This document shows positions 15,070 through 35,597 of a DNA stretch of 64,000 nt, in pieces. The position numbers and the translations under genes were made by a program. How positions within the stretch are numbered: the stretch's first letter is position 1; each line of letters opens with the position of its first letter. The notes beneath the pieces were generated by a model. The model did no database searches. It saw nothing but the letters and a program-made list of their open reading frames with translations, and was not told the origin of the DNA. This DNA comes from Bosea thiooxidans (GTDB lineage Bacteria; Pseudomonadota; Alphaproteobacteria; Rhizobiales; Beijerinckiaceae): contig CALRYW010000007.1 in assembly GCA_943372485.1 (NCBI GenBank), forward strand, positions 4,936 through 68,935, in the 5' to 3' direction.

Positions 15070-16692
15070 TCACTCGAAGGCGGTGATGACCGCATCGACA
15101 TCCGTGACGACACAGACATTCTGCATCGCGTAATTGACTGACGCCGTGTGCCATTCGGCGTTCATCGTCGAGCAGGCATCCTCCGGCACCAGCATGAAAT
15201 AGCCCTTGTCGGCGCCGCTGCGTGCCGTGTGCTCGATCGACATGTTGGTCCAGGCGCCGGTGACGATGACGACGTCGCGGCCCAGCGCCTTGAGCACGGT
15301 CTCCAGCCTTGTCCCCTCCCAAGCGCTCATGCGGCACTTCTCGACGACATGGTCGCCAGCCTGCGCCTCGAGCCCTGGCACCGGCGCGCAGCCCCAGGTC
15401 CCGCGCACCAGCGCCTTGGCGTCCGCCAGGCCCTCGAACAGCGGTGCGTTCATGGTGACGCCCGGCGCGCCGGGCTCCACCACGAACCAGACATGGATCA
15501 CCGGAATGCCGCGGGCACGCGCCGCTTGGGCCAGACGGCCCGCATTGCCGATCGCGTTCTGCTGCCGGCAGTGCTCCGGCGAACCCGAGGAGGCGAAGGC
15601 GCCGCCCTCCATGATGACGTCGTTCTGCATGTCCTGGATGATCAGCGCGCAGCGGCCCGGATCGAGCCGGTAGCCGGAGGCCGCCTTCTTCGCGCCGCTG
15701 GCGGCGATCGTCGCGGCGGGTTTGACGCCTGAGACCGGCTCGGACGGGGGAGGGCCGCCGCTGCGACTGCGCTCCGGGCCGCCAGCCTTCATATACGGCT
15801 CCATCCGGGGGCCGACCTTGGTCTCGACGGCATAGAGCGAATGCGTCGCGGTCAGGAACAGCGTGCGCCAGTCCGGCCCGCCCCAGGTCAGGTTCCCAAC
15901 GAGCTCGGGCACGCGCAGCTTGCCGATGAGTTCGCCCCTGATGGTGTAGACCCAGACGCCGCCGGGGCCGCAGACCCAGAGATTGCCCTGTGCATCGCAT
16001 TTCATGCCGTCGGGCACGCCGGGCTCGCTGGCCGAGACGATGCCGGAGGCGAAGATGCGCCCCGGTCCGAGCCGCCCATCGCCGAGGATCGGGAAGACGC
16101 GGATGTTGTGCTGCACCGTGTCGTTGACGAAGAGGCGGTCCTCGGTCGGGCAGAAGCACAGGCCGTTGGGCTGGTCGAACAGATAGCGGTCAACCACGAG
16201 CTGCGGTTCGCCGCCGCCCGGCGGAATCCGATACACCCCCTGAAAGCCGAGCTGCCGCGGCCGCTCGACGCCGAAGACCGGCATGCGGCCATACCAGGGA
16301 TCGGAAAAGTAGATCGCCCCATCGGACTTCACCACGACGTCGTTGGGGCTGTTGAGCTCCTGCCCGTCGAAATGCGAGGCCAGCACCTCGCGCCGGCCGT
16401 CCGGCCGCTCGCGGACCAGCGACGACGTCGCGTGCTCGCAGACGATCAGGTTGAGGTCGGCATCATAGGTCATGCCGTTGCATTTGTTCGCCGGCCGCTT
16501 GACGTCGCGCACGCCGCTTCTGTCCCAGCGACGGCGGACGTCGCCAGGCATGTCGGAGAACAGCAGATGCTGTTCGCGCGGATGCCAGACCGGCCCTTCG
16601 CAGAATTCGAAGCCGGTGCCGAGCTGGCGCACCGGCGCCCAGAGATCGATCAGCTCGGCGAAGGCCGGGCGGACGGCGACGTGCGTGGTCAT
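15070..16692 (-). CDS. SMP-30/gluconolactonase domain fused to isochorismatase-like hydrolase domain
   Basis: N-half FCEGPVW, NSPNDVVVKSDGAIYFSDP, PDGMKCD; Pro/Ser/Ala linker; C-half IIQDMQND, VEKCRMSAW, GAWTNMSIEHTAR. Confidence 0.88.
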   Translation of the reverse strand: MTTHVAVRPAFAELIDLWAPVRQLGTGFEFCEGPVWHPREQHLLFSDMPGDVRRRWDRSGVRDVKRPANKCNGMTYDADLNLIVCEHATSSLVRERPDGRREVLASHFDGQELNSPNDVVVKSDGAIYFSDPWYGRMPVFGVERPRQLGFQGVYRIPPGGGEPQLVVDRYLFDQPNGLCFCPTEDRLFVNDTVQHNIRVFPILGDGRLGPGRIFASGIVSASEPGVPDGMKCDAQGNLWVCGPGGVWVYTIRGELIGKLRVPELVGNLTWGGPDWRTLFLTATHSLYAVETKVGPRMEPYMKAGGPERSRSGGPPPSEPVSGVKPAATIAASGAKKAASGYRLDPGRCALIIQDMQNDVIMEGGAFASSGSPEHCRQQNAIGNAGRLAQAARARGIPVIHVWFVVEPGAPGVTMNAPLFEGLADAKALVRGTWGCAPVPGLEAQAGDHVVEKCRMSAWEGTRLETVLKALGRDVVIVTGAWTNMSIEHTARSGADKGYFMLVPEDACSTMNAEWHTASVNYAMQNVCVVTDVDAVITAFE

Positions 16693-16704: not shown

Positions 16705-17553
16705 TTACGCCGCAAACCAGTTGCGCGGCGGCAGCGACTGCACGACCGGGCCGGGAACCGCCATGTCCATCCGGCCGACGACCTGACCGTGGGCGATCTT
16801 GGCCGGCTTGTCATGGACCGGCAGCAGGAATTTCCCGACCGAGAGCAGCTTCTTGATGGCCGCCTTTTCCTCGCGCTTGGAGACGCCGTGATTGCCGGTG
16901 GTGCGCGGCTCGTTGGCGCTGATCTCGTGGAAGGGCGTGACGATCTGGTCGTTGAAGTCGTAGATCACGTCGCCGCAGATGATGGCGCGCCCCTCGATCG
17001 TGTCGACATGGACATTCATCGAGCCCTCGGTATGGGCGCCGGCCGCTTCCAGATAGCAGCCGGGGAAGAGCTCGATCATCCCGGACAGCTCCAGATCCTC
17101 GAAGCGAAGTGCGTCGCGCGTGTGCAGCCGGTCGATCAGATGCTTGATGTCGGGCGCCGGATACTGCGGATGCATCAGCCCGGAGACGGAGTATTCCAGC
17201 TCACGCCGGTTGACGATCACCGTCGTGTTCATCGGGAAGAGCTCGTCCTTCCCGGCATGATCGATATGGAGATGGGTGTGCATCACGTAGCGCACATCGC
17301 CCATCCGCACGCCGTATTTGGCGAGCTGGTTCTCGATCATGTTCTCGTGGAACTGGAGGCCGCGCATGCCGAGCGTCTCCATGATCTGGTTGTGCCGGTA
17401 GCCGGTGTCGACGACGACTGGCCAGGGGCCGCCGAGGATCAGGAAGCCATAGGTCGGCACGCGCCGCGTGCGGCCGCAGTCGCGGCCGAGGACCAGGAAG
17501 CTCGATTCCAGCTCGATGTCGCCATAGTCGAGGATCTTGATTTCGAGCGCCAT
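16705..17553 (-). CDS. Metallo-beta-lactamase-fold hydrolase, AHL-lactonase (AiiA/AttM)-like family
   Basis: VVVDTG, HTHLHIDHAG (HxHxDH), GAHTEGS, GDVIY, PVHD. Confidence 0.88.
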   Translation of the reverse strand: MALEIKILDYGDIELESSFLVLGRDCGRTRRVPTYGFLILGGPWPVVVDTGYRHNQIMETLGMRGLQFHENMIENQLAKYGVRMGDVRYVMHTHLHIDHAGKDELFPMNTTVIVNRRELEYSVSGLMHPQYPAPDIKHLIDRLHTRDALRFEDLELSGMIELFPGCYLEAAGAHTEGSMNVHVDTIEGRAIICGDVIYDFNDQIVTPFHEISANEPRTTGNHGVSKREEKAAIKKLLSVGKFLLPVHDKPAKIAHGQVVGRMDMAVPGPVVQSLPPRNWFAA

Positions 17554-17565
17554 GGAGGTTCTCCG

Positions 17566-18450
17566 TCAGGGCTGGGCGAGGCGGTAGACCCGCCGCGCGG
17601 TTTGGCTGAAGACAGCGTCCACCGCGCCTTCAGGCACGGCGGCGCGATGGGCGCCGATCAGCTCGGGATAGCTCGTCCAGAGCTTCTCGATCGGGAAGTT
17701 GGAGCCGAACAGACAGCGCTCGGCCCCGAACAGCGCGAGCGTGTCCGTCACGACGAAGGTGATCTGCGCGGGATCGTTGCGGCGCTGGAACGTGCCGAGT
17801 CCCGAGAGCTTGCTGACGATGTTGGGCTGGTCGGCGAGCGACCGCATCCCTTCCCGCCAGTGCGCGATGCCGCCCGTCGACAGGTCCTCCAGCATGCCGG
17901 CGTGCTGGAGCACGAAGGTCACCTCGGGACAGGCCGCGGCGAGTTCAGCCGCGCCCGCCATCTGCGGGGCGAAGACCTGCAGGTCGAAGCTGAAGCCGTA
18001 ACCGGCCAGCCGGCCGATATTGGCCTGCAAGAGCGGGTCGCGGCAGAGATCGGCGCCGCCTGCGAAGCGATAGAGCGGGTTCGCGTGCCAGTGCAGCTGC
18101 ATGCGCACGCCGCGCACCCGCGGGTTCTGCGCCAGCGCGTCGAGCTGCGGCCGGACGTCTTCTGCGAGCATGTCGGCATAGGCGACGATGGCGATTGGGA
18201 AGCCGGAGTCGTCGGAGGCCTGCGAGACGAAGGCGACCTCGTCGAGATGGCGCGCCGGCGCCCAATTCGCCTGGACATAGACGGCCTGCGTCACGCCGCA
18301 GGGGCGGCACTCCGCCAGGTACTCCGCAACCGGATAGTCGCGCCGGATCGGCTCATAGGGGCCGAAGATGCGCGGTTGCATCGGGCCCAGCAGCCAGGGC
18401 AGATCGGCTTGGCGCCAGATATGGAAATGCGAGTCGATGATGCCGGTCAT
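17566..18450 (-). CDS. Amidohydrolase_2-family hydrolase (LigI / L-fuconolactonase-like)
   Basis: IDSHFHIW, VLQHAG, SKLSG, LFGSNFP. Confidence 0.85.
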   Translation of the reverse strand: MTGIIDSHFHIWRQADLPWLLGPMQPRIFGPYEPIRRDYPVAEYLAECRPCGVTQAVYVQANWAPARHLDEVAFVSQASDDSGFPIAIVAYADMLAEDVRPQLDALAQNPRVRGVRMQLHWHANPLYRFAGGADLCRDPLLQANIGRLAGYGFSFDLQVFAPQMAGAAELAAACPEVTFVLQHAGMLEDLSTGGIAHWREGMRSLADQPNIVSKLSGLGTFQRRNDPAQITFVVTDTLALFGAERCLFGSNFPIEKLWTSYPELIGAHRAAVPEGAVDAVFSQTARRVYRLAQP

Positions 18451-19559
18451 GCCGCGGCCGAGCCTCCGAGCGACAGGATGTGGCGGCAGATCCGCGCCGT
18501 GCTGCCGCCATGGCCGAGGCTGGCGAGCGCCGGCGCGATCAGCCGCAGCGCCTCGGTCTCGGGCCTGTAGCCGGGATCGGCGGCGAGCGGCGTCAGCCAG
18601 TCGATACGGTGGGCGCGGGCGGCCAGTCTTTCGACGGCCGACACCAGCGCGGCCGGGTCGCCGCGCTCCAGCCCGTCCGACAGTACCACGACCACGGCGC
18701 CACGGGCGTAAGAGGCAAAGCGCGGCATGGCGAGGAAGGCCTGCAGCGCATCGCCGATGCGGGTGCCGCCGTCCCAGTCGGCAACGAGGCCGGACGCTTC
18801 GGCGAGCGCCTGCTCGCGACGCCGGCGGCGCAGTGCGCGTGTCACCCGCGTCAGCCTGGTGCCGAAGGTAAAGACCTCCGCCCGCGGCGCCGCCTGCACC
18901 ACCGCATGAGCCAGGGCGAGATTGGCGTCGCTGCGCTGCTTCATCGAGCCGGAGACGTCGATCAGCAGCAGGATCGGCCGGGGCCGCGGGACGCGCCTGA
19001 GCTTCTTCAGGCTCATCACCTCGCCATCATGGCGGATTGCGGCGCGCAGGCTGCGGGCGAGATCGACGCTCGCCCCCCGCCGGGCGCCGCGATGGCGGTA
19101 GCCGCGGCGGCGGGGCAGGGCGGCCGGCAGCGCCCGGGCAAAGCGGCGCAGGGTCTCGGCTTCGTCGAGCGGCTTCAGCGCCCGGACCGACAGGGCCTCC
19201 GCCCCCGTTGCAGCCTGACCGGTCTCGTTGACCTCCTCGCCGATCAGGATCTCGCGCGAGCCGGAATCCTCCTGGACCGCCATCTCCTCGTCGGGCGCGA
19301 AGTCGTCGTCGCCGGGTTCGGCGACGGCGCCGAGGAAATGCAGGTCGAACAGCGCATCGAACCGGTCGCGCTGTTCGGGATGGGGCGCGAACGTCGCCAC
19401 CGCCGCTTTGCGGATATGCTCGATGCTGCGCGGCCCGAGCAGCTCGACCGCCATCAGGAAGCTCGTCGTCTGCTCGGGCGCGACCGAGAAGCCATGGCCG
19501 CGCAGCAACGTTGGGAAGGCGACGAACAGGCGTGCAGCGGCAGGGAGCGGGGCGATCAT
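18447..19559 (-). CDS. CoxE-like VWA-domain protein
   Basis: LLIDVSGSM MIDAS, FTFGTRLTRVT, WDGGTRIG, VLSDGLERG. Confidence 0.9.
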   Translation of the reverse strand: MIAPLPAAARLFVAFPTLLRGHGFSVAPEQTTSFLMAVELLGPRSIEHIRKAAVATFAPHPEQRDRFDALFDLHFLGAVAEPGDDDFAPDEEMAVQEDSGSREILIGEEVNETGQAATGAEALSVRALKPLDEAETLRRFARALPAALPRRRGYRHRGARRGASVDLARSLRAAIRHDGEVMSLKKLRRVPRPRPILLLIDVSGSMKQRSDANLALAHAVVQAAPRAEVFTFGTRLTRVTRALRRRRREQALAEASGLVADWDGGTRIGDALQAFLAMPRFASYARGAVVVVLSDGLERGDPAALVSAVERLAARAHRIDWLTPLAADPGYRPETEALRLIAPALASLGHGGSTARICRHILSLGGSAAA

Positions 19560-19671: not shown

Positions 19672-20556
19672 TCATGCCGCCAGCCCCGGGATGATCGCCG
19701 GCAGACGGGGACGCAGATGGACGAAATCCTCCTCGTCCTTGATTGCGGCACCCAGCGAGCGACGGAACGCCTCCGGCCAGGGCGCTCCGGCCCGGGCGAG
19801 CGCGGTCGCGGCCTCCGCCCAGTCGACGGCCTCGGCCACGCCCGGCGGCTTGGCCAGTGGCTCCTGCCTCAGGAGCCCGATGGCCTGGACGACGGCGCGC
19901 GCCGTGCCCTCGGCGACGGCCGAGGAGCGCATCATGATGATCTGCGCTTCGCGCTCGGGCTCGGGATAGGCGATGTAGTGGTAGACGCAGCGGCGCCGCA
20001 GCGCCTCGTGCAGCTCCCGCGTACGGTTCGAGGTCAGCACCACGACCGGCCGCTCGGCGGCGCGCAGGGTGCCGCGCTCGGGGATCGAGATCGAAAAGTC
20101 GGACAGGAATTCGAGCAGGAAGGCCTCGAATTCATGGTCCGAGCGATCGATTTCGTCGATCAGCAGCACGGTCGATTCCGGCCGCCGCAGGGCTGTCAAC
20201 ATCGGACGCTCGATCAGGAAGTCGTCTCGATAGATGTCGAGTGTCTCCCCTTCGCGGGCTTGCCTGATGGCCAGCATCTGGCGCGGATAGTTCCACTCGT
20301 AGAGCGCGGCCGAGGCGTCGATGCCCTCGAAGCATTGCAGCCGGATCAGCTGGCGCCCGAGGATGCCGGCGATCGCCTTGGCGGCCTCGGTCTTGCCGAC
20401 GCCGGGCGCGCCCTCGAGCAGCAGGGGCTTGCCGAGGGCTAACGCGAGGTAGCCGGCCGTGGCGATGCCGTCATCGGCGAGATACATCGCGCCCGTCAGG
20501 GCCTGCGCGAGGTCCTCGGGGCTCGAGATTCCGGCGACGGTGGTGCGCAGCGCCAT
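19672..20556 (-). CDS. CoxD-like MoxR-family AAA+ ATPase
   Basis: LLEGAPGVGKT, LQCFEGIDASAALYEWNY, LLIDEIDRSD, TSNRTRELHEALRRRC. Confidence 0.92.
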   Translation of the reverse strand: MALRTTVAGISSPEDLAQALTGAMYLADDGIATAGYLALALGKPLLLEGAPGVGKTEAAKAIAGILGRQLIRLQCFEGIDASAALYEWNYPRQMLAIRQAREGETLDIYRDDFLIERPMLTALRRPESTVLLIDEIDRSDHEFEAFLLEFLSDFSISIPERGTLRAAERPVVVLTSNRTRELHEALRRRCVYHYIAYPEPEREAQIIMMRSSAVAEGTARAVVQAIGLLRQEPLAKPPGVAEAVDWAEAATALARAGAPWPEAFRRSLGAAIKDEEDFVHLRPRLPAIIPGLAA

Positions 20557-20560
20557 GCGA

Positions 20561-21604
20561 TCACCGCCAGGTCACGGGGCCGCCGCGGCGCGGGCCGGGC
20601 TTGACGCCGCCATTGGCCTTGAGGCCGCGCAGGATCTTCTCGGGCGTGATCGGCAGCTCGTCGACGCGCACGCCGACCGCGTTGTAGACGGCGTTGGCGA
20701 TCGCCGGCAGGACCGGATTGGCGCACATCTCGCCGGGCCCCTTGCCGCCATAGGGCCCGTCGGGCGCCGGGCGCTCCAGAACCGTGACGTGATAGGGCGC
20801 GATCTCGCCCGGCCCCGGCATCAGGTACTCGTTGAAGTCGCGCGGGCCATGGGCGGTGTCGGGATAATAGGGCTCGGGCGTCTCGTAGAGGGCGTGGCTC
20901 ATGCCCATCCAGGCCCCGCCGACGAGCTGCTGCTCGACCATGCGCGGATTGATTACCCGGCCGAGCTCATAGGCGCTGGTCATCCGGAGCACCTCGACCT
21001 CGCCGGTCTCGTCGTCGACGGCGACGTCGGCCACCAGGCAGGCATGGGCGAAGGCGGTGTTGGGGTTCATTTCGCCGGTTTCGGCATCCACCGCCGAGAG
21101 CGGGATCAGGAAGATGCCGCGCCCGGCGATGGTCTTGCCCTGCTTGAACTGCGCCGCCTGGGCGGTGGCCTTGACCGTGATCGAGCGCGAGGGCGCGCCG
21201 CGGACATGGATGTTGCCGCGCCCGTCGGTGACGAGGTCGCCGGCATCGACCTCGAGCTCCTCGGCCGCCGCCTCCAGCAGCACGCCGCGGGCCTCGCGCG
21301 CCGCGACGATGATGGCGTTGCCCATGCGATGCGTGCCGCGCGAGGCAAAAGAGCCCATGTCATGGGGGCCGGTGTCGCTGTCGGCAGTGTCGACATAGAC
21401 GTCCTCGACGGGCACGCCGAGCGTTTCCGCCGCGATCTGCCGCGAGACCTGCTTCATGCCCTGGCCGAGATCGATCGCCGAGAGCGCCACGGTGAACTTG
21501 CCGTCCGGGTTGGAATGGATCAGCGCCTGGCTCGGATCGCCGCCGAGATTCATCCCGATCGGGTAGTTGACGGACGCCATGCCGCGACCTTCGTGACGGG
21601 CCAT
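20561..21604 (-). CDS. Molybdenum hydroxylase, C-terminal ('medium') molybdopterin subunit
   Basis: Start trimmed to MARHEGRG; DLGQG, DMGSFASRGT, GQLVGG-like QQLVGGAWMG, GKGPGE with catalytic Glu, VDELPITPEKIL. Confidence 0.88.
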   Translation of the reverse strand: MARHEGRGMASVNYPIGMNLGGDPSQALIHSNPDGKFTVALSAIDLGQGMKQVSRQIAAETLGVPVEDVYVDTADSDTGPHDMGSFASRGTHRMGNAIIVAAREARGVLLEAAAEELEVDAGDLVTDGRGNIHVRGAPSRSITVKATAQAAQFKQGKTIAGRGIFLIPLSAVDAETGEMNPNTAFAHACLVADVAVDDETGEVEVLRMTSAYELGRVINPRMVEQQLVGGAWMGMSHALYETPEPYYPDTAHGPRDFNEYLMPGPGEIAPYHVTVLERPAPDGPYGGKGPGEMCANPVLPAIANAVYNAVGVRVDELPITPEKILRGLKANGGVKPGPRRGGPVTWR

Positions 21605-21605
21605 G

Positions 21606-23393
21606 TCAGCGCCTCCTGCCGAAGACGGATGAGAAGCGCACCGCGCCATGCTGGGTCTGCGCGGGTGCCGCCGGCGCCGGAGCTGGCGCGGGCGAAGGCG
21701 GCGTCGGGGGCGGCTGATAGGGTGGCGGCTGCTGGCCAGATACCGGCTGGTAGGGCGAGGGGGGCTGCGGCGGCGGAGAGGCCGGCTGCGCTGCGTAGGA
21801 CGGTGGCACGGCCGTTGCGGGGCGCGGCGCCTCGTAGCGCGGCACTTGCGTCGGTGCGGCACGCCCGTCGCGCGCGCCCTCCATCACCGGCTGCTTGCTC
21901 AAGGCGATGCGGGAGGTGCCGGCCGGCAGGGTCTGCGTCGGGCCTGAGTTGCGGCTGTCGGGCCGACCGATCTGGCCGCGCGCATCGAGCACGGTCGCTG
22001 GGATCTGCCCTCGCTCGCCGGCGCCGCCGCCGGTCAGGGACGACTGGCGCTGCGCCTGCTCGGAGATCGGCCAGTTCGCCTTCCCGGCCGCGACCTGGAC
22101 GCATTCGATCAGCGCCGTGTTCGAGGCCTTGCGCCGATGCGGCTTCATATCCCCATCGCGATAGGCGTTGAGGATCCGGAACTCCATCGGGTCCAGGCCG
22201 GCCGCTTCGGCCAGCCGGTCCATCTGGACCTCCAGCGCAAAATCCACCGCCGTAATGCCGAAGCCGCGCATGGCGGTGGAAGGGCAGCGATTGGTGTAGG
22301 CGACATGGACGTCGGAGGCGACGTTGGGGATCCAATAGGGGCCGGGTAGATGCGCTGTGCACTTGATCGCGGCATAGCTCGACAGCCGCGTATAGGCGCC
22401 GGCGTCGAAATAGCTGCGGATGTAGCGGGCGACGATGCGCCCATCGCGCATCAGCCCATCCTTGATGTAGATGCGCTCGGCCCCGCGCGGTGAGCCGGAG
22501 AGCATCTCCTCCTCGCGATCGAGCACGAAGCGGACCGGGCGCCCCGTCACCATCGCGCCCAGGACCGCCAGCGGCTCGGTCAGCGAGTCGACCTTGCCGC
22601 CGAAGCCGCCGCCGACCGTGCCGCCGATGAAATGCAGGCGGTTGGACTCGACCGCGACGATCTTCGCGGTGGTGCCGAGCGCGAAGAACAGACCCTGCGC
22701 GCAGGAATGGACGACGAAGCGGCCATTCTGCTCGGGCGCGGCGATCGAGCCGTTGGTCTCGGTCGGCGCATGCTCGATCGGTGACATCTGGTAGCGGTGC
22801 TCCAGCACCATGTCGGCGCCGGCAAAGGCGCGCTCGACATCGCCGAAGCGCAGCTTCTGATGGTCGAAGCGCTCGTGATACTCGAAGTAATTGGCGGGAT
22901 AGGTCTCGTTGACGACGGGCGCGCCGGGTTTGAGCGCCTCCTCGACATCGAAGACGGCGGGCATCGGCTCGTAGTCGATCCGGACCAGCGTCTTCGCCGC
23001 CAGCGCCTGCGCCTCGCTTTCGGCGATGATCGCGACGACGGGCTCGCCGACATAGTGCACCTTGTCGACCGCCAGCGAGGGCTCGTCGTCCTTGCCGAAA
23101 TTGATCAGGCTCAACAGCGTGTTCTTGTTCACCGGCACGTCCGCCGCGCGCAGCACGCGCTTCACGCCCGGCGCGCGCGCCGCGGCCGAGACGTCGATCG
23201 AGCGGATGCGGGCGCTGGCATGGGGGCTGCGCACCACCTTGAGATGCAGCAGGCCGTCGAAGCCATGATCGTCGAAATAGCGCGTCAGCCCGGTGACGTG
23301 ACCGGGCATGTCCTGACGCTGGATGCCCTTGCCGACGACGTTGAGATTGTCGTCGCGCTCGTCGGCGAAGAGGTCCTTGCGCATTTCCAGCAT
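21606..23393 (-). CDS. Molybdenum hydroxylase, N-terminal ('large') molybdopterin subunit with Pro-rich C-terminal tail
   Basis: Start trimmed to MLEMRKD; VVRSPHASARI, VGEPVVAIIA, GGGFGGK, DAGAY, AMRGFG; last ~100 aa are P/Q/A-rich. Confidence 0.88.
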   Translation of the reverse strand: MLEMRKDLFADERDDNLNVVGKGIQRQDMPGHVTGLTRYFDDHGFDGLLHLKVVRSPHASARIRSIDVSAAARAPGVKRVLRAADVPVNKNTLLSLINFGKDDEPSLAVDKVHYVGEPVVAIIAESEAQALAAKTLVRIDYEPMPAVFDVEEALKPGAPVVNETYPANYFEYHERFDHQKLRFGDVERAFAGADMVLEHRYQMSPIEHAPTETNGSIAAPEQNGRFVVHSCAQGLFFALGTTAKIVAVESNRLHFIGGTVGGGFGGKVDSLTEPLAVLGAMVTGRPVRFVLDREEEMLSGSPRGAERIYIKDGLMRDGRIVARYIRSYFDAGAYTRLSSYAAIKCTAHLPGPYWIPNVASDVHVAYTNRCPSTAMRGFGITAVDFALEVQMDRLAEAAGLDPMEFRILNAYRDGDMKPHRRKASNTALIECVQVAAGKANWPISEQAQRQSSLTGGGAGERGQIPATVLDARGQIGRPDSRNSGPTQTLPAGTSRIALSKQPVMEGARDGRAAPTQVPRYEAPRPATAVPPSYAAQPASPPPQPPSPYQPVSGQQPPPYQPPPTPPSPAPAPAPAAPAQTQHGAVRFSSVFGRRR

Positions 23394-23404
23394 GTTGGCC
23401 TCCC

Positions 23405-23887
23405 TCAGGCGCGGCGCAGGCCGGGCGAACCGGCGGCGGCGAGGATCGCGGCGACGATGGGTTCGTAGCCGGTGCAGCGGCAGATGTTGCCGCTGATCGC
23501 CTCGATGACCTCGTCGCGGGTGGGGTTGGGTTTTTTGTCGAGCAGGGCGCGCGCCGCCGTCAGCATGCCCGGCGTGCAGAACCCGCACTGCGCGGCGAAA
23601 TGCTCCATGAACTGCACCTGCAGCGGGTGCAGCTCGGGTCCATTGGCCATCCCGGAGGCCGTCTCGACCTGCCTGCCCTCGCAGGCGACCGAAAGCGTCA
23701 GGCAGGAGAGATGCGGCTCGCCATCGATCAGCACGGTGCAGACGCCGCAGGCTCCCTGGCCGCAGCCATATTTCGGGGCGAAGTCGCCCAGGCTCCGGCG
23801 CAGCGTGTCGAGCAGCGTCTCGGGCGCATCGACGAAGGCGGCGCGGTCGGTGCCGTTGAGGCGGAACTGGACGGGGATCTTGGCCAT
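23405..23887 (-). CDS. Molybdenum hydroxylase 2x[2Fe-2S] subunit
   Basis: KYGCGQGACGVCTV...SCL and QCGFCTPG...NICRCTGY. Confidence 0.95.
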   Translation of the reverse strand: MAKIPVQFRLNGTDRAAFVDAPETLLDTLRRSLGDFAPKYGCGQGACGVCTVLIDGEPHLSCLTLSVACEGRQVETASGMANGPELHPLQVQFMEHFAAQCGFCTPGMLTAARALLDKKPNPTRDEVIEAISGNICRCTGYEPIVAAILAAAGSPGLRRA

Positions 23888-23896
23888 GCGCGCTCC

Positions 23897-24718
23897 TCAG
23901 CGGGGCTCGCCGGCGAGCAGCCGGCCGAGATGGACGGGCAGCACCTCGCGGCGATACCACTCGCTGGCGATCGCATCGGTGGCCGGGCGGCAGCCTTCGA
24001 GCGCGGCCTGTTTTGCGGCGGCGATGGCCGCGGCATCGAGTGCCTTGCCCTCTAGGGACCGCTCGACGCCGCGCGCGCGGATCGGCGTCGGCGCCATCGC
24101 GCCATAGGCGACCCGCGCCTGGCTGACGCGCCCGCCCGCCTGCGGCAGATGCGCGGCGATCGACAGCACCGAAATCCCCTTCGGCTTGACCCGGCTGATC
24201 TTGCGGAAGTGGAAATCGCCGGGGCTGGCGGGTCGCGGGAACTGGATGGAGGCGACCAGCGCCGGCCCCATGCGCTCGCGGGCCGCCAGGAACTCCTCCA
24301 GCGGAGTCGCCCGCCCGGAACCGAAGCCAGACTGCACCACGACCTGTGCATCGAGCGCCAGCAGCGCCACGGTGAAATCGCCGTAAGGCGTGGGTGCGAA
24401 GAGATTGCCGCCGACACTCGCCATGTTGCGCACGGCCGGGCCGCCAATCGCACGGGCCGGCGCATGGAGAAAGGCGAGCTCGCGGCTGGCCAGGATCTGG
24501 CCCATCGTGACCCCGCCGCCGAACTCGATGCGGGCACCATGGGCCTCGATCCGCCGGAAGGCGGGATCGGTGACGCGCAGCAGCGTGCCCTCGGTCAGCC
24601 GGCCCTCGTTGACGTCGCGCATCACCAGCGTGCCGCCGCCGATCAGCACCGCCTGCCGGTCACCGGACAGGATGCCGGCGGCTTCGGAGAGCGTCGCGCA
24701 GCTTCTCACAGCGAGCAT
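23897..24718 (-). CDS. Molybdenum hydroxylase FAD-binding subunit
   Basis: LIGGGTLV, IGGPAVRNMASVGGNL, VAYGAMAPTPIRA, IASEWYR. Confidence 0.92.
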   Translation of the reverse strand: MLAVRSCATLSEAAGILSGDRQAVLIGGGTLVMRDVNEGRLTEGTLLRVTDPAFRRIEAHGARIEFGGGVTMGQILASRELAFLHAPARAIGGPAVRNMASVGGNLFAPTPYGDFTVALLALDAQVVVQSGFGSGRATPLEEFLAARERMGPALVASIQFPRPASPGDFHFRKISRVKPKGISVLSIAAHLPQAGGRVSQARVAYGAMAPTPIRARGVERSLEGKALDAAAIAAAKQAALEGCRPATDAIASEWYRREVLPVHLGRLLAGEPR

Positions 24719-24719
24719 G

Positions 24720-25172
24720 TCAGACCGCCTCCCCCGCGAGTTCCGGCAGGCGGCGTACCGCCTCGATGCCGTTGGTGTAGACCTCGTCGCCGACGATGCG
24801 GGCGAGCTCGGCCTCGCGGCCGCGGGGCGTGGTGAATCGGCTTTCCCAGTGCCAGAAGGCGCGGTTGCCGTCGGTCACCGGCAGCAGCCGGACATGGGCG
24901 ACGTAGTTGAAGAGCGGGATCGGCGTATCCAGCAGGCAGTAGCTGAAGGTCATTTCGAGGTCCGACAGCGTGAGGAGCTGCTCGCGCAGCTCGCTGCCGT
25001 CCTGCAGCCAGAAGCGGCGCACGCAGCCGATCCGGTCGGACGGGTGGCCGCGCTCGATCTCGCTCCTCGCGACGATCGGGTGCCAGCGGTCATGGCCGTT
25101 GAAGTCGCGCAGCACCGACCAGAGCAGGTCGACCGGCGCGTCGATGATCGTGCTGCGGACGACGTGAGGCAT
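24720..25172 (-). CDS. SRPBCC (Polyketide_cyc2 / MxaD / PYL-like) protein, copy 2
   Basis: LWSVLRDFNGHDRWHP, IGCVRRFWL, LREQLLTLSD, NYVAH. Confidence 0.88.
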   Translation of the reverse strand: MPHVVRSTIIDAPVDLLWSVLRDFNGHDRWHPIVARSEIERGHPSDRIGCVRRFWLQDGSELREQLLTLSDLEMTFSYCLLDTPIPLFNYVAHVRLLPVTDGNRAFWHWESRFTTPRGREAELARIVGDEVYTNGIEAVRRLPELAGEAV

Positions 25173-25175
25173 GCC

Positions 25176-25613
25176 TCATCCCCCGAATGCGCGCTTGAGG
25201 GCATCGAATCCGCCCTGGAAGACATTGGTGCCGATGCCCTCGACCAGCTCCGCCTCGCGCTCCGGCGCACAGTCGAAATCGGCCGACCATTCGATGAAGG
25301 TACGCTCCTGGTCGGTGATCGGCGTGAGCCGCAGCGTCGCAACGTAATTCGTCAGCGGCATCGGCGAATCCAGGATCGAGTAGGTGCAGAACATGTCGTA
25401 GTCGGAAAGGCCGAGCAGCTGCTCGCGCAGGCGATCGCCGCTGCGCAGCGAGAAGGCGCGGATGCAGCCGACCTTGTCGGCCGGCTCGCCGTTTTCGATC
25501 CGGCTTTCGGCGATACGCGGATGCCAGTTCGGCAGGCCGTTGAAATCGCGTACGCGGGCCCAGACCTTGGCGGCGGGGGCGGAGATGACGCTGGAGACGT
25601 AGACGCGGGCCAT
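25176..25613 (-). CDS. SRPBCC (Polyketide_cyc2 / MxaD / PYL-like) protein, copy 1
   Basis: VWARVRDFNGLPNWHP, VGCIRAFSL, LREQLLGLSD, NYVAT; clearly paralogous to its neighbour. Confidence 0.88.
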   Translation of the reverse strand: MARVYVSSVISAPAAKVWARVRDFNGLPNWHPRIAESRIENGEPADKVGCIRAFSLRSGDRLREQLLGLSDYDMFCTYSILDSPMPLTNYVATLRLTPITDQERTFIEWSADFDCAPEREAELVEGIGTNVFQGGFDALKRAFGG

Positions 25614-33559: not shown

Positions 33560-34570
33560 TCAGCGCCTCGCCGCCAGGCCTTCGGGCCTGATCGCCAGCA
33601 CCGCGACCATGATCAGGAAGGTCAGCATCACCGCATAGGTCGGCATGTAGACTGAGCCAAACTGTTCGGCGAGGCCGACGATCAGCGCCCCGACCGCCGC
33701 GCCGGGGATCGAGCCCATGCCACCGACGATGACGACGACGAGCGAGGACAGCAGGATGCGCGTATCCTCGCCCGGCTGCAGCGACTGGAAGGTACCGCCG
33801 ACGACGCCGGCGAGGCCCGCGAGCCCGGCCCCGAAGGCGAAGACCATGACAAAGACCAGCTGCACGCGCACGCCGGTCGCCGACAGCATGTCGCGATCAT
33901 CCACCCCGGCGCGCACCAGCATGCCGACCCGCGTGCGGTTGAGCGCCAGCCACATCAGCACGCCGACGATGATCGCCCCGATCAGGATGGCGATGCGCAC
34001 CAGCGGGTAGGTCATCATCACCGCCTCGCCATTGCTGCGCAGCGCGACCGCCAAGGGCAGCGTCACCGGCCCGGAGAGCCAGTCCGGCGCGGTGACCTGG
34101 AAGGTGTCGCCGCCATAGCTCCACAAAAGCAGGTCGGCGAAGATGATCGAGAGGCCGATGGTGACGAGCGTCTGGCGGAGGTCCTGGCCCTCCATCCAGC
34201 GAAACAGCAGCACCTGCATGAGGATGCCGACCAGCGCCACGACGAGGAAGGCGACCAGCAGCGCCATCAGCCAAGAGCCGGTCCATTCGCCGACGCTGTA
34301 GCCGACATAGCCGCCGAACAGATACAGCGAGCCGTGCGCAAGGTTGACGTTGCGCATCAGCCCGAAGATCAGCGTGAACCCGCTGGCGACCAGGAAATAC
34401 AGCGCCCCCAGCGTGATGCCGTTGAACAGCGCACTCAGGAAGACGCGCTTGCGCCCGAACATCGCCTCCATCCCCGGCGTCCAGATCGAAAAGACGAGCC
34501 AGGCCAGGACGGCCAGCGCCAGCAGGATGATCAGCGACCAGATCGGGCGGCGGGCGACGAAATCAGACAT
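33560..34570 (-). CDS. LivH-type ABC permease
   Basis: Start trimmed to MSDFVA; GFTLIFGLMRNVNLAHG, VVIVGGMGSIPGA, RPEGL. Confidence 0.92.
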   Translation of the reverse strand: MSDFVARRPIWSLIILLALAVLAWLVFSIWTPGMEAMFGRKRVFLSALFNGITLGALYFLVASGFTLIFGLMRNVNLAHGSLYLFGGYVGYSVGEWTGSWLMALLVAFLVVALVGILMQVLLFRWMEGQDLRQTLVTIGLSIIFADLLLWSYGGDTFQVTAPDWLSGPVTLPLAVALRSNGEAVMMTYPLVRIAILIGAIIVGVLMWLALNRTRVGMLVRAGVDDRDMLSATGVRVQLVFVMVFAFGAGLAGLAGVVGGTFQSLQPGEDTRILLSSLVVVIVGGMGSIPGAAVGALIVGLAEQFGSVYMPTYAVMLTFLIMVAVLAIRPEGLAARR

Positions 34571-35435
34571 GGCAGGCCCGCAGCGACGGGCCGGACAGGG
34601 GCGGCGGCTGGCCGACACGGCGCAGGACCCGGCGATAATCCCGCGGCGCCATCCCCATATGGGCGGTGAAGAAGCGGGTGAAGACGCTCTGGCAGGAGAA
34701 GCCGAGCCTCTGGCTGATCTGCGTCACCGGATCGCCCGAGAGCACAAGGCGATCGAGCGCCGCATCGAGCCGGACGGTGTTGGCGAAGACGGTCGGGGTG
34801 ACGCCGACCTGCTCGCGGAAGAGCTTGAAGAAATGCGCCCGCGACAGCCCGGCCTCTCGGGCGACACGGGCGAGTGCACCCTCATGGGCGGGATGGGCCT
34901 CGATCAGACGCTGCGCCCGCACCACCCGCCGGTCGAGCACGCTTTCCGGCGCGACATGCAGCAGGGCGGAGGCGAGGTCCTGGCCGATTGGCTCGCTCGA
35001 GGCCTGGGCCAGCGCCATCAGTACCGGCGCCAGATTGAGATCGCGATGCGCCGACAGCAGCATCTCGACCGCCTCGTCGCGCCAGGAGGCGAGTTCGCGG
35101 GTGATCACCAGCTCGGACGCCGGGAAGGCGAGCGCACCGGGCGGCGTCATGGTCTGGGCCGCGAGCCATTCGGGCTTGAGATAGACGACGAGGAAGAGGC
35201 CGAGCGCGCCGGCCCGTTCCGGCTGGAAGTTGTGCGGCTCCCAGGGATTGATCGCCACCCCCATGAAGGGGTCGACCAGCGTGGCGCGGCCATTCACGGT
35301 GACGATACCGCGCGACCCTTCGAGGAAGAAGATCAGATGGGCCTCGCGGTGGGCGTGCAGCACCAGCGGGCGGTCGAGATCGTAGATCGCGACGCGGCCG
35401 AAGGGGCCGTGGCAGACCGCAACTGCGCGACTCAT
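34563..35435 (-). CDS. AraC-family transcriptional regulator
   Basis: Cupin-like HAHREAH N-domain; C-terminal VAREAGLSRAHFFKLF and LGFSCQSVFTRFF double HTH; start trimmed to MSRAVA. Confidence 0.92.
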   Translation of the reverse strand: MSRAVAVCHGPFGRVAIYDLDRPLVLHAHREAHLIFFLEGSRGIVTVNGRATLVDPFMGVAINPWEPHNFQPERAGALGLFLVVYLKPEWLAAQTMTPPGALAFPASELVITRELASWRDEAVEMLLSAHRDLNLAPVLMALAQASSEPIGQDLASALLHVAPESVLDRRVVRAQRLIEAHPAHEGALARVAREAGLSRAHFFKLFREQVGVTPTVFANTVRLDAALDRLVLSGDPVTQISQRLGFSCQSVFTRFFTAHMGMAPRDYRRVLRRVGQPPPLSGPSLRACHV

Positions 35436-35597
35436 GATGCCTCGCGAAAGTAGGTCCGACGCAGGAAGCTGGGCCTCGTCAGGCAAGCCGCCGGCTTGGC
35501 ACCACGAGATCCGCTCGCAGGCGCCGGGAGTCGGGACGTGACGGAAGCGGAGGGGGCACGCATGGCGCGGGTCCCCTCCATCGGGCGCTCGGGCGCC

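Follow-up and report, generated by a model that had tools for sequence, protein, structure and literature searches.

A predicted four-polypeptide molybdenum hydroxylase with a split molybdenum subunit and a tailed L chain in an alphaproteobacterial importer and flotillin operon

The closest described counterpart of the enzyme considered here is the nicotinate dehydrogenase (NDH) of Eubacterium barkeri, NdhFSLM, the sole solved molybdenum (Mo) hydroxylase with a split Mo subunit returned by our searches. Two other systems offer points of comparison: HcrABC of Thauera aromatica, in which HcrA is a single chain and HcrB carries an extra [4Fe-4S] loop, and the form I CO dehydrogenase (CODH) of Oligotropha carboxidovorans, CoxMSL with CoxDEFG, in which sulfuration of the MoO3 site, in the already folded enzyme, requires CoxD (PMC4240915). 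Here we describe a locus in a 64,000-nucleotide stretch of Bosea thiooxidans (contig CALRYW010000007.1, positions 4,936 to 68,935; hereafter the window) that encodes a putative Mo hydroxylase of four polypeptides, F, S, L and M (FSLM). Owing to the high G+C of the window (~69%), its open reading frames (ORFs) were screened by G+C at third codon positions (GC3).

With NDH (3HRD) this locus shares the four polypeptides, the order F-S-L-M, the same break in the Mo subunit, an RGFG loop of the xanthine dehydrogenase (XDH) type and the catalytic Glu. It differs in the 155-aa tail and 15-aa N-terminal extension of L, in the operon, which here comprises an importer, a kinase-like enzyme, a flotillin, SRPBCC proteins, CoxD/E and lactonase-like hydrolases, and in the aerobic host, which has no selD, so that no selenido ligand is to be expected. 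HcrA (1RM6) is the second-best solved match (161 bits for L, 152 bits for M), and fused HcrA-like proteins are sister to the split clade; however, F is without the [4Fe-4S] loop of HcrB, and the cluster has no CoA ligase. The logic of FAD, 2Fe-2S and Mo subunits, the CoxD/E-like genes and the nearby SRPBCC genes recall form I CODH, but here the AYxCSFR loop with its Cys and CoxF are both absent, the large subunit is split, and the SRPBCC proteins are of the Polyketide_cyc2 family and not CoxG. In our reading, to which we assign a probability of about 0.7, FSLM would be a functional, conserved Mo hydroxylase of the xanthine oxidase family, made of four polypeptides, served by CoxD/E and equipped with a docking tail, which acts on a substrate imported by its operon and yields a product opened by lactonases.

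Subunits, active site and cofactors

The hammerhead, MoCoBD_1, MoCoBD_2, 2Fe-2S and FAD domains of the four proteins all score above their Pfam cut-offs, and by these domains and its motifs FSLM is a four-subunit member of the xanthine oxidase family. The active-site loop AMRGFG occupies L374-379 (nt 22257-22274), and the GKGPGE motif M287-292, with the catalytic Glu292 at nt 20729-20731. The core of L further carries Gln233, GGGFGGKVD at 261-269 and Lys344, whereas Tyr14 is provided by M; the eight cluster Cys of S are at 42, 47, 50, 62, 101, 104, 136 and 138. Gln233 and AMRGFG align with their counterparts in NdhL, and Glu292(M), the equivalent of bovine Glu1261, aligns with the GE of NdhM (GEMC vs GEPA). 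A2 and A3 show no variation at Arg376 and Gly377 and almost none at Gln233.

Among the better known enzymes of the family, an HcrABC-type identity is ruled out by F, which counts just 2 Cys among its 273 aa, is without the [4Fe-4S] insertion of HcrB and scores 49.8 bits against the TIGR03195 cut-off of 404. The Glu of the GGGFGGKE motif is involved in purine binding; the XdhB paralogue encoded in this genome has GGGFGGKE and AFRGFGGPQ, as opposed to the GGGFGGKVD of L, which rules out xanthine dehydrogenase. None of the NCBIfam equivalog models came near its cut-off. The genome, 99% complete, has no selD above the cut-off of 125 bits (the best match reaches 65.5), which is an indirect sign that the enzyme is probably not selenium-dependent. 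Three other large subunits of the genome, on contigs C16, C94 and C95, have the form-II-like loop AYRGAGR/K, and contig C95 also holds CoxE- and XdhC-like genes. XdhC-type genes are confined to the neighbourhood of two other Mo enzymes (contigs C95 and C4).

The split Mo subunit and its relatives

An earlier note on this DNA, made by reading the sequence, had described the Mo chain as two ORFs of 595 and 347 aa, 1 nt apart and each with its own start, and the ORFs are exactly so. The TGA stop of L (21606-21608) is followed by a single base (21605) and the ATG of M (21602-21604). The end of L reads GGC AGG AGG CGC TGA, which places AGGAGG (21612-21617) 7 nt before the start of M. The last Arg codons of L thus double as the ribosome-binding site of M, and L and M would accordingly be separate cistrons with coupled translation.

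The best 120 matches of L in a search of 5.8 billion proteins, which admitted proteins of 327-1042 aa and returned cluster representatives, are 84-99% identical and 541-623 aa long; none of the 120 is fused, and the closest is from Bosea sp. RAC05. In a search of 1.84 billion representatives with no limit on length, the nearest relatives are again all split (P0125, 623 aa and 67% identity; P0127, 455 aa and 53%; then proteins of 433-463 aa), and fused proteins of ~770 aa appear only at ~40% identity or less. Across 80 species-representative genomes, including those of Bosea, Bradyrhizobium, Pseudolabrys, Phreatobacter, Methylobacterium, Microvirga and Aquabacter, L and M are separate wherever both genes were included, and the split is also kept in other alphaproteobacterial families. 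In the B. thiooxidans genome itself this L is the only split one among eight large subunits of the xanthine oxidase family. The junction varies: TGA is followed by 1 nt in ~70 loci, TAG by 2 nt in a few, and TAA by 3 nt in the tail-less relative G048, while repeat inserts of 255 nt (locus L010) and 128 nt (locus L018) separate L from M. Since the frame relation varies and inserts are tolerated, both a lesion and a programmed frameshift are excluded, and the split Mo subunit is, on this comparison of loci, a genuine two-gene arrangement. The two inserts, both in Bosea genomes (about 11768-12022 in L010 and about 11756-11883 in L018), are GC-rich palindromic CCCCTCCCCCTTGTGGGGAGGGG-like repeats placed exactly at the L/M boundary, and each is followed by a new Shine-Dalgarno (SD) sequence before M.

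Two alternatives to a genuine split were considered. In one, +1 programmed frameshifting or read-through at TGA-N-ATG would fuse L and M. The release factor 2 (RF2) gene prfB has a frameshift site in which an SD-like sequence precedes UGA C, and the end of L, with AGGAGG 3 nt ahead of TGA C, is superficially like it. Yet the frame relation is not conserved, given spacers of 1, 2 or 3 nt and all three stop codons; the inserts of 128 and 255 nt bring their own SD; no slippery codon stands ahead of the stop; and L and M are separate chains (A and B of 3HRD) in E. barkeri NDH. We consider such a fusion very unlikely. The same low standing belongs to the notion that the split is a lesion or the locus a pseudogene, or that the enzyme is a CODH, as the coxD/coxE-like genes after M might lead one to expect. 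Purifying selection maintains the split in >80 species. The AMRGFG loop takes the place of AYxCSFR and has no Cu-binding Cys, TIGR02416 (CODH) gives only 153 bits for L and 114 bits for M against a cut-off of 991, and AYxCSFR does not occur anywhere in this genome. The Cys-free loop and the sub-cut-off scores rule out a form I CODH and, together with the conservation of the split, already contradict this alternative. The earlier note had thus judged correctly that the enzyme is not a CODH in spite of coxD/coxE, and its placement of the loop and the catalytic Glu stands; the homologue comparison for which it had called turned up no close homologue with a single chain, and the split is conserved.

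The best solved matches of L and M are NdhL (3hrd_A, 196 bits, L18-439 against 6-415 of 425) and NdhM (3hrd_B, 164 bits, M4-330 against 3-327 of 330), and the Mo subunit is broken at the same MoCoBD_1/MoCoBD_2 boundary in both enzymes, with the genes in the order F-S-L-M. The AlphaFold2 (AF2) model of L has 3hrd_A as its top Foldseek match (template-modelling score 0.90 on the target, 31% identity), and the predicted local distance difference test (pLDDT) score of the core is mostly >85. The identity of L and M to NdhL and NdhM is ~31-37%. In trees of the L core, this L groups with other split forms only, in a clade of 10-11 rows supported at 99%, in which the tailed forms make up a 100% subclade with the tail-less P0127 and G048 as nearest neighbours. 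NdhL was placed by the proxy P0207 (270 bits to 3hrd_A), which falls in an enclosing 19-row clade (96%), where fused HcrA-like representatives (P0179, 380 bits to 1rm6) are sister to the split clade. Fused HcrA-like rows thus nest between the two split groups, with NdhL represented by its proxy. Forcing a single split clade costs 47 log-likelihood units (p-AU 0.012, approximately unbiased (AU) test), a result to be taken as a pointer only since the group was named after the tree had been seen. The break at this domain boundary may have arisen twice, independently.

Given the level of identity, the HcrA-like sister group and the AU test, we describe the enzyme as one with NDH architecture in a clade of its own, and these data would not establish Ndh orthology. 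This bears on the earlier note, which had placed the enzyme in an Ndh-like subfamily with the split L and M architecture of E. barkeri: the architecture holds, since NdhL and NdhM are the closest solved proteins and have their break at the same position, but the membership is not supported. The phylogeny it had proposed likewise gave a divided answer, namely an all-split clade but no single clade with NdhL-like forms, as judged from P0207. The same split architecture is hereby recognized in a well-populated aerobic alphaproteobacterial clade, possibly by independent acquisition, and this clade is without selD and has CoxD/E instead of an XdhC gene in the cluster. Contig C118 of this genome (L002:484-3486(-)) encodes a MOP-like paralogue, a single chain of ~1000 aa with 2Fe-2S and Mo domains and the motifs GGGFGGKLD and AFRGFGVPQ. 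Its scores to NdhL and NdhM (272 and 219 bits) are above those of the split enzyme, yet it lies outside the clade.

The tail and N-terminal extension of L

The folded NdhL-like core accounts for only ~440 of the 595 residues of L; the remaining residues 441-595 form a Pro/Ala/Gln-rich tail to which nothing corresponds in NdhL or in P0127 and G048, the nearest relatives without a tail. It is present in every homologue of the tailed clade, including that of Roseobacter sp. (P0125, 67% identity). Of the three parts of the tail, residues 461-525 are moderately conserved (mean column identity 0.67), residues 526-578 are Pro-rich and variable (0.60), and the terminal peptide, QHGA-x-RFSSVFG-(T)-RRR, reaches 0.85, compared with 0.88 for the core. 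RFSS is invariant in 78 loci, in which synonymous codons are used throughout (five for Arg, four for each Ser, two for Phe). This synonymous variation over an invariant peptide indicates that selection is on the terminal peptide itself and not solely on the overlapping ribosome-binding site. A further conserved feature of the tailed clade is an acidic extension at the N terminus of L, LE-F/M-RKD-x-FA-D/N-ERDD-x-LN. In one locus (L095, G399:C37, from an 87%-complete genome) the L frame of 559 aa is without RFSS and overlaps the start of M by 55 nt; this end is probably the product of a frameshift or assembly error in the tail.

All enzymes with the tail belong to an importer/kinase/flotillin/SRPBCC operon that includes CoxD/E; a single contrast is provided by G048, which has no tail and is without the flotillin operon and CoxD/E. 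Most likely, in our view, the tail with its terminal peptide docks to another protein encoded in the operon. As to the partner, we suggest only tentatively, and with more doubt than confidence, that the RFSS-FG-RRR peptide, perhaps with the acidic N-terminal peptide, tethers the hydroxylase to the extra-long flotillin of the operon beside the importer, or that it is the grip of the CoxD/CoxE AAA+/von Willebrand factor A (VWA) pair on the apoenzyme. M is a further candidate partner. Two observations count against this reading in that they point to no partner: the AF2 model of L alone gives only disorder for the tail (pLDDT <50 from about residue 472; mean of 57 for the block 461-470), and a comparison by eye found no obvious positive relation between tail length and flotillin length. 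A targeting peptide shared by multiple cargoes is unsupported, as a motif search found no other protein with the terminal motif in this genome. The ESM Atlas returned no look-alike of the tail, and in operon versions without FSLM the listed ORFs, a GC3-filtered and incomplete set, include none with a comparable C-terminal motif. What is new is a short, conserved peptide at the end of a long disordered tail, confined to the version of the enzyme in the importer/kinase/flotillin operon. Were the flotillin tether true, it would represent a bacterial flotillin with a defined client and a defined targeting peptide.

The operon and the predicted reaction

The gene order begins with a Peripla_BP_6 binding protein, an AraC-type regulator at 34563-35486, two permeases and an ATP-binding cassette (ABC) ATPase fused to UPF0261, continues with a PEP_hydrolase-like TIM barrel, a 966-aa flotillin, two SRPBCC genes and F-S-L-M, and ends with CoxD, CoxE, Amidohydro_2, MBL and the SMP-30/isochorismatase-like fusion. 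The SRPBCC gene G1 stops 1 nt ahead of F. Between the last permease and the SMP-30 fusion, both included, this order is syntenic across the fetched loci of Hyphomicrobiales and other alphaproteobacterial families, whose stretches did not reach the binding protein and regulator. Exceptions are the missing match to Amidohydro_2 in, for example, L041, L043 and L044, to MBL in L096 and to CoxE in L013. The occurrence is patchy: of 400 genomes sampled in the class, 5 have M at E <1e-60. Where the operon occurs without FSLM (G039, G480, G564, G633), CoxD/E and the three hydrolases are missing as well, and the CoxD-like gene is always found with FSLM and absent where the operon is without it. This shared presence and absence makes FSLM, CoxD/E and the hydrolases, by gene content, one module. 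Other oxidoreductases are present in the versions without FSLM, in the GC3-filtered and incomplete list of their ORFs. In one of these, from another class (L141 5823-7271, G633), the second SRPBCC gene encodes a 482-aa fusion with a C-terminal domain of ~330 aa, which is presumably an oxidoreductase; CoxD/E and the hydrolases are missing here. The CoxD-like protein scores 259 bits against the MadB family, below the cut-off of that family; literature searches on MadB/MadC and on split Mo subunits found nothing relevant.

Several features of the module point to a reaction. The nearest solved structures of the three hydrolases, from three superfamilies, are the lactonase 4dlf, 4-pyridoxolactonase and acyl-homoserine lactone (AHL) lactonases, and gluconolactonases. 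Hydroxylation beside a ring oxygen gives a hydrolysable lactone, and beside a ring nitrogen a lactam. The co-occurrence of CoxD/E and three lactonase-like hydrolases therefore suggests a lactone-forming hydroxylation, and an O- or N-heterocyclic (or lactol/aldehyde) compound is the likely substrate. We propose that F would bind FAD and S two [2Fe-2S] clusters, with L and M jointly forming the Mo-pterin subunit. The active site would be of the XDH/NDH type, with Gln233, Arg376 and Phe378 from L and Tyr14 and Glu292 from M. The Mo would carry a terminal sulfido ligand, neither Se nor Cu-S. With no XdhC gene in the cluster, and with the sulfuration of CODH by CoxD as precedent, CoxD/E would probably install or maintain this ligand on the folded apoenzyme. 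Electrons would pass from Mo via the two [2Fe-2S] clusters and FAD to an acceptor. The substrate, an aromatic or heterocyclic compound, would be imported by the Peripla_BP_6 ABC system of the operon and hydroxylated beside the ring heteroatom, and the three co-inherited hydrolases would open the resulting lactone or lactam. Several points weigh against this scheme: every member of the enzyme clade is known from genes alone, the substrate class comes from gene neighbours only, the sulfido ligand and the role of CoxD/E are extrapolated from CODH, and the hydrolases encoded downstream could serve a step ahead of the Mo enzyme or belong to a different branch of the pathway.

Two other assignments of the reaction deserve comparison with this scheme. 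An aldehyde oxidoreductase of the PaoABC/MOP type, oxidizing an aromatic aldehyde derived from the imported compound instead of hydroxylating a ring, is consistent with the fold and active site of the family, which permit both chemistries, and with the 160 bits of MOP (1sij) to L. The binding protein of the operon is of the Peripla_BP_6 family, which includes aromatic-acid binders. Moreover, MarK, the only characterised UPF0261 protein, is an ATP-dependent kinase that phosphorylates aromatic ketones and aldehydes (PMC12624787). We nevertheless consider this assignment unlikely: the nearest relatives are ring-acting enzymes of the NDH/HCR type, and an aldehyde-to-acid step leaves the three lactonase-like hydrolases unexplained. 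Still less probable is a true nicotinate 6-hydroxylase orthologous to NdhFSLM. Besides the gene order, break point and best solved matches, the two enzymes share Tyr14(M) and GGGFGGK(V/L)D; however, the identity is just ~31-37%, NdhL is nearer to P0207 (270 bits) and the C118 paralogue (272) than to this L (196), the genome has no selD, the AU test speaks against one common split clade, and the conserved cluster holds no nicotinate-pathway gene. A Pfam search of the conserved neighbours found no hnr-, enamidase- or nic-type domains, and no clue to a substrate came from the genes around the enzyme in G048 and G081, two relatives without the tail. The neighbourhood gives no support to the pyridine-like substrate proposed in the earlier note: no nicotinate-pathway genes are nearby, and the conserved partners are the three lactonase-like hydrolases. 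We favour the hydroxylation with lactonase-mediated opening outlined above, in which the enzyme would be an uncharacterised NDH-architecture Mo hydroxylase serving as the oxidative module of an unstudied operon. Two questions become testable: which compound this widespread operon breaks down, and whether the flotillin or the MoxR/VWA chaperone recognizes a client peptide.

Table 1. Coordinates in the window of the hydroxylase genes, their parts and the adjoining genes
Feature	Position (nt)	Strand	Basis
SRPBCC gene pair (Polyketide_cyc2)	24720..25613: 25176-25613 + 24720-25172	(-)	Pfam, synteny; adjoins F upstream
F, FAD subunit, 273 aa (P0004)	23897..24718	(-)	Pfam FAD_binding_5 + CO_deh_flav_C
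S, two [2Fe-2S] clusters, 160 aa (P0003)	23405..23887	(-)	Pfam Fer2 + Fer2_2
L, 595 aa	21606-23393	(-)	Pfam Ald_Xan_dh_C (hammerhead) + MoCoBD_1
L N-terminal extension	23343-23393	(-)	L residues 1-17; low AF2 confidence; absent from tail-less split relatives
L core, residues 1-440	22074..23393	(-)	hammerhead + MoCoBD_1; 3hrd_A 196 bits over L18-439
L tail, residues 441-595	21609..22073	(-)	21% Pro, predicted disordered, clade-specific
L C-terminal short motif QHGAVRFSSVFGRRR	21609..21659	(-)	conserved in homologue loci
L/M junction AGGAGG-N3-TGA-N1-ATG	21602..21617	(-)	sequence read
M, 347 aa (P0002)	20561..21604	(-)	Pfam MoCoBD_2; 3hrd_B 164 bits over M4-330
CoxD-like MoxR AAA+ ATPase	19672..20556	(-)	AAA/AAA_5 domains; directly downstream of M
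CoxE-like VWA protein	18447..19559	(-)	VWA_CoxE 172 bits; syntenic
Amidohydro_2 hydrolase	17566-18450	(-)	Pfam
MBL fold hydrolase	16705-17553	(-)	Pfam
SMP-30 lactonase fused to isochorismatase-like domain	15070-16692	(-)	Pfam

A complete cluster was also found on a contig titled MAG Archangium gephyra (L075), with identities to the window of 85-90% for G2, M, CoxD and MBL, its best-conserved genes, 73% for L and 68% for F. These values are about equal to those of the Phreatobacter loci, and by this measure the contig looks like a binning contaminant and not a myxobacterial copy of the operon.

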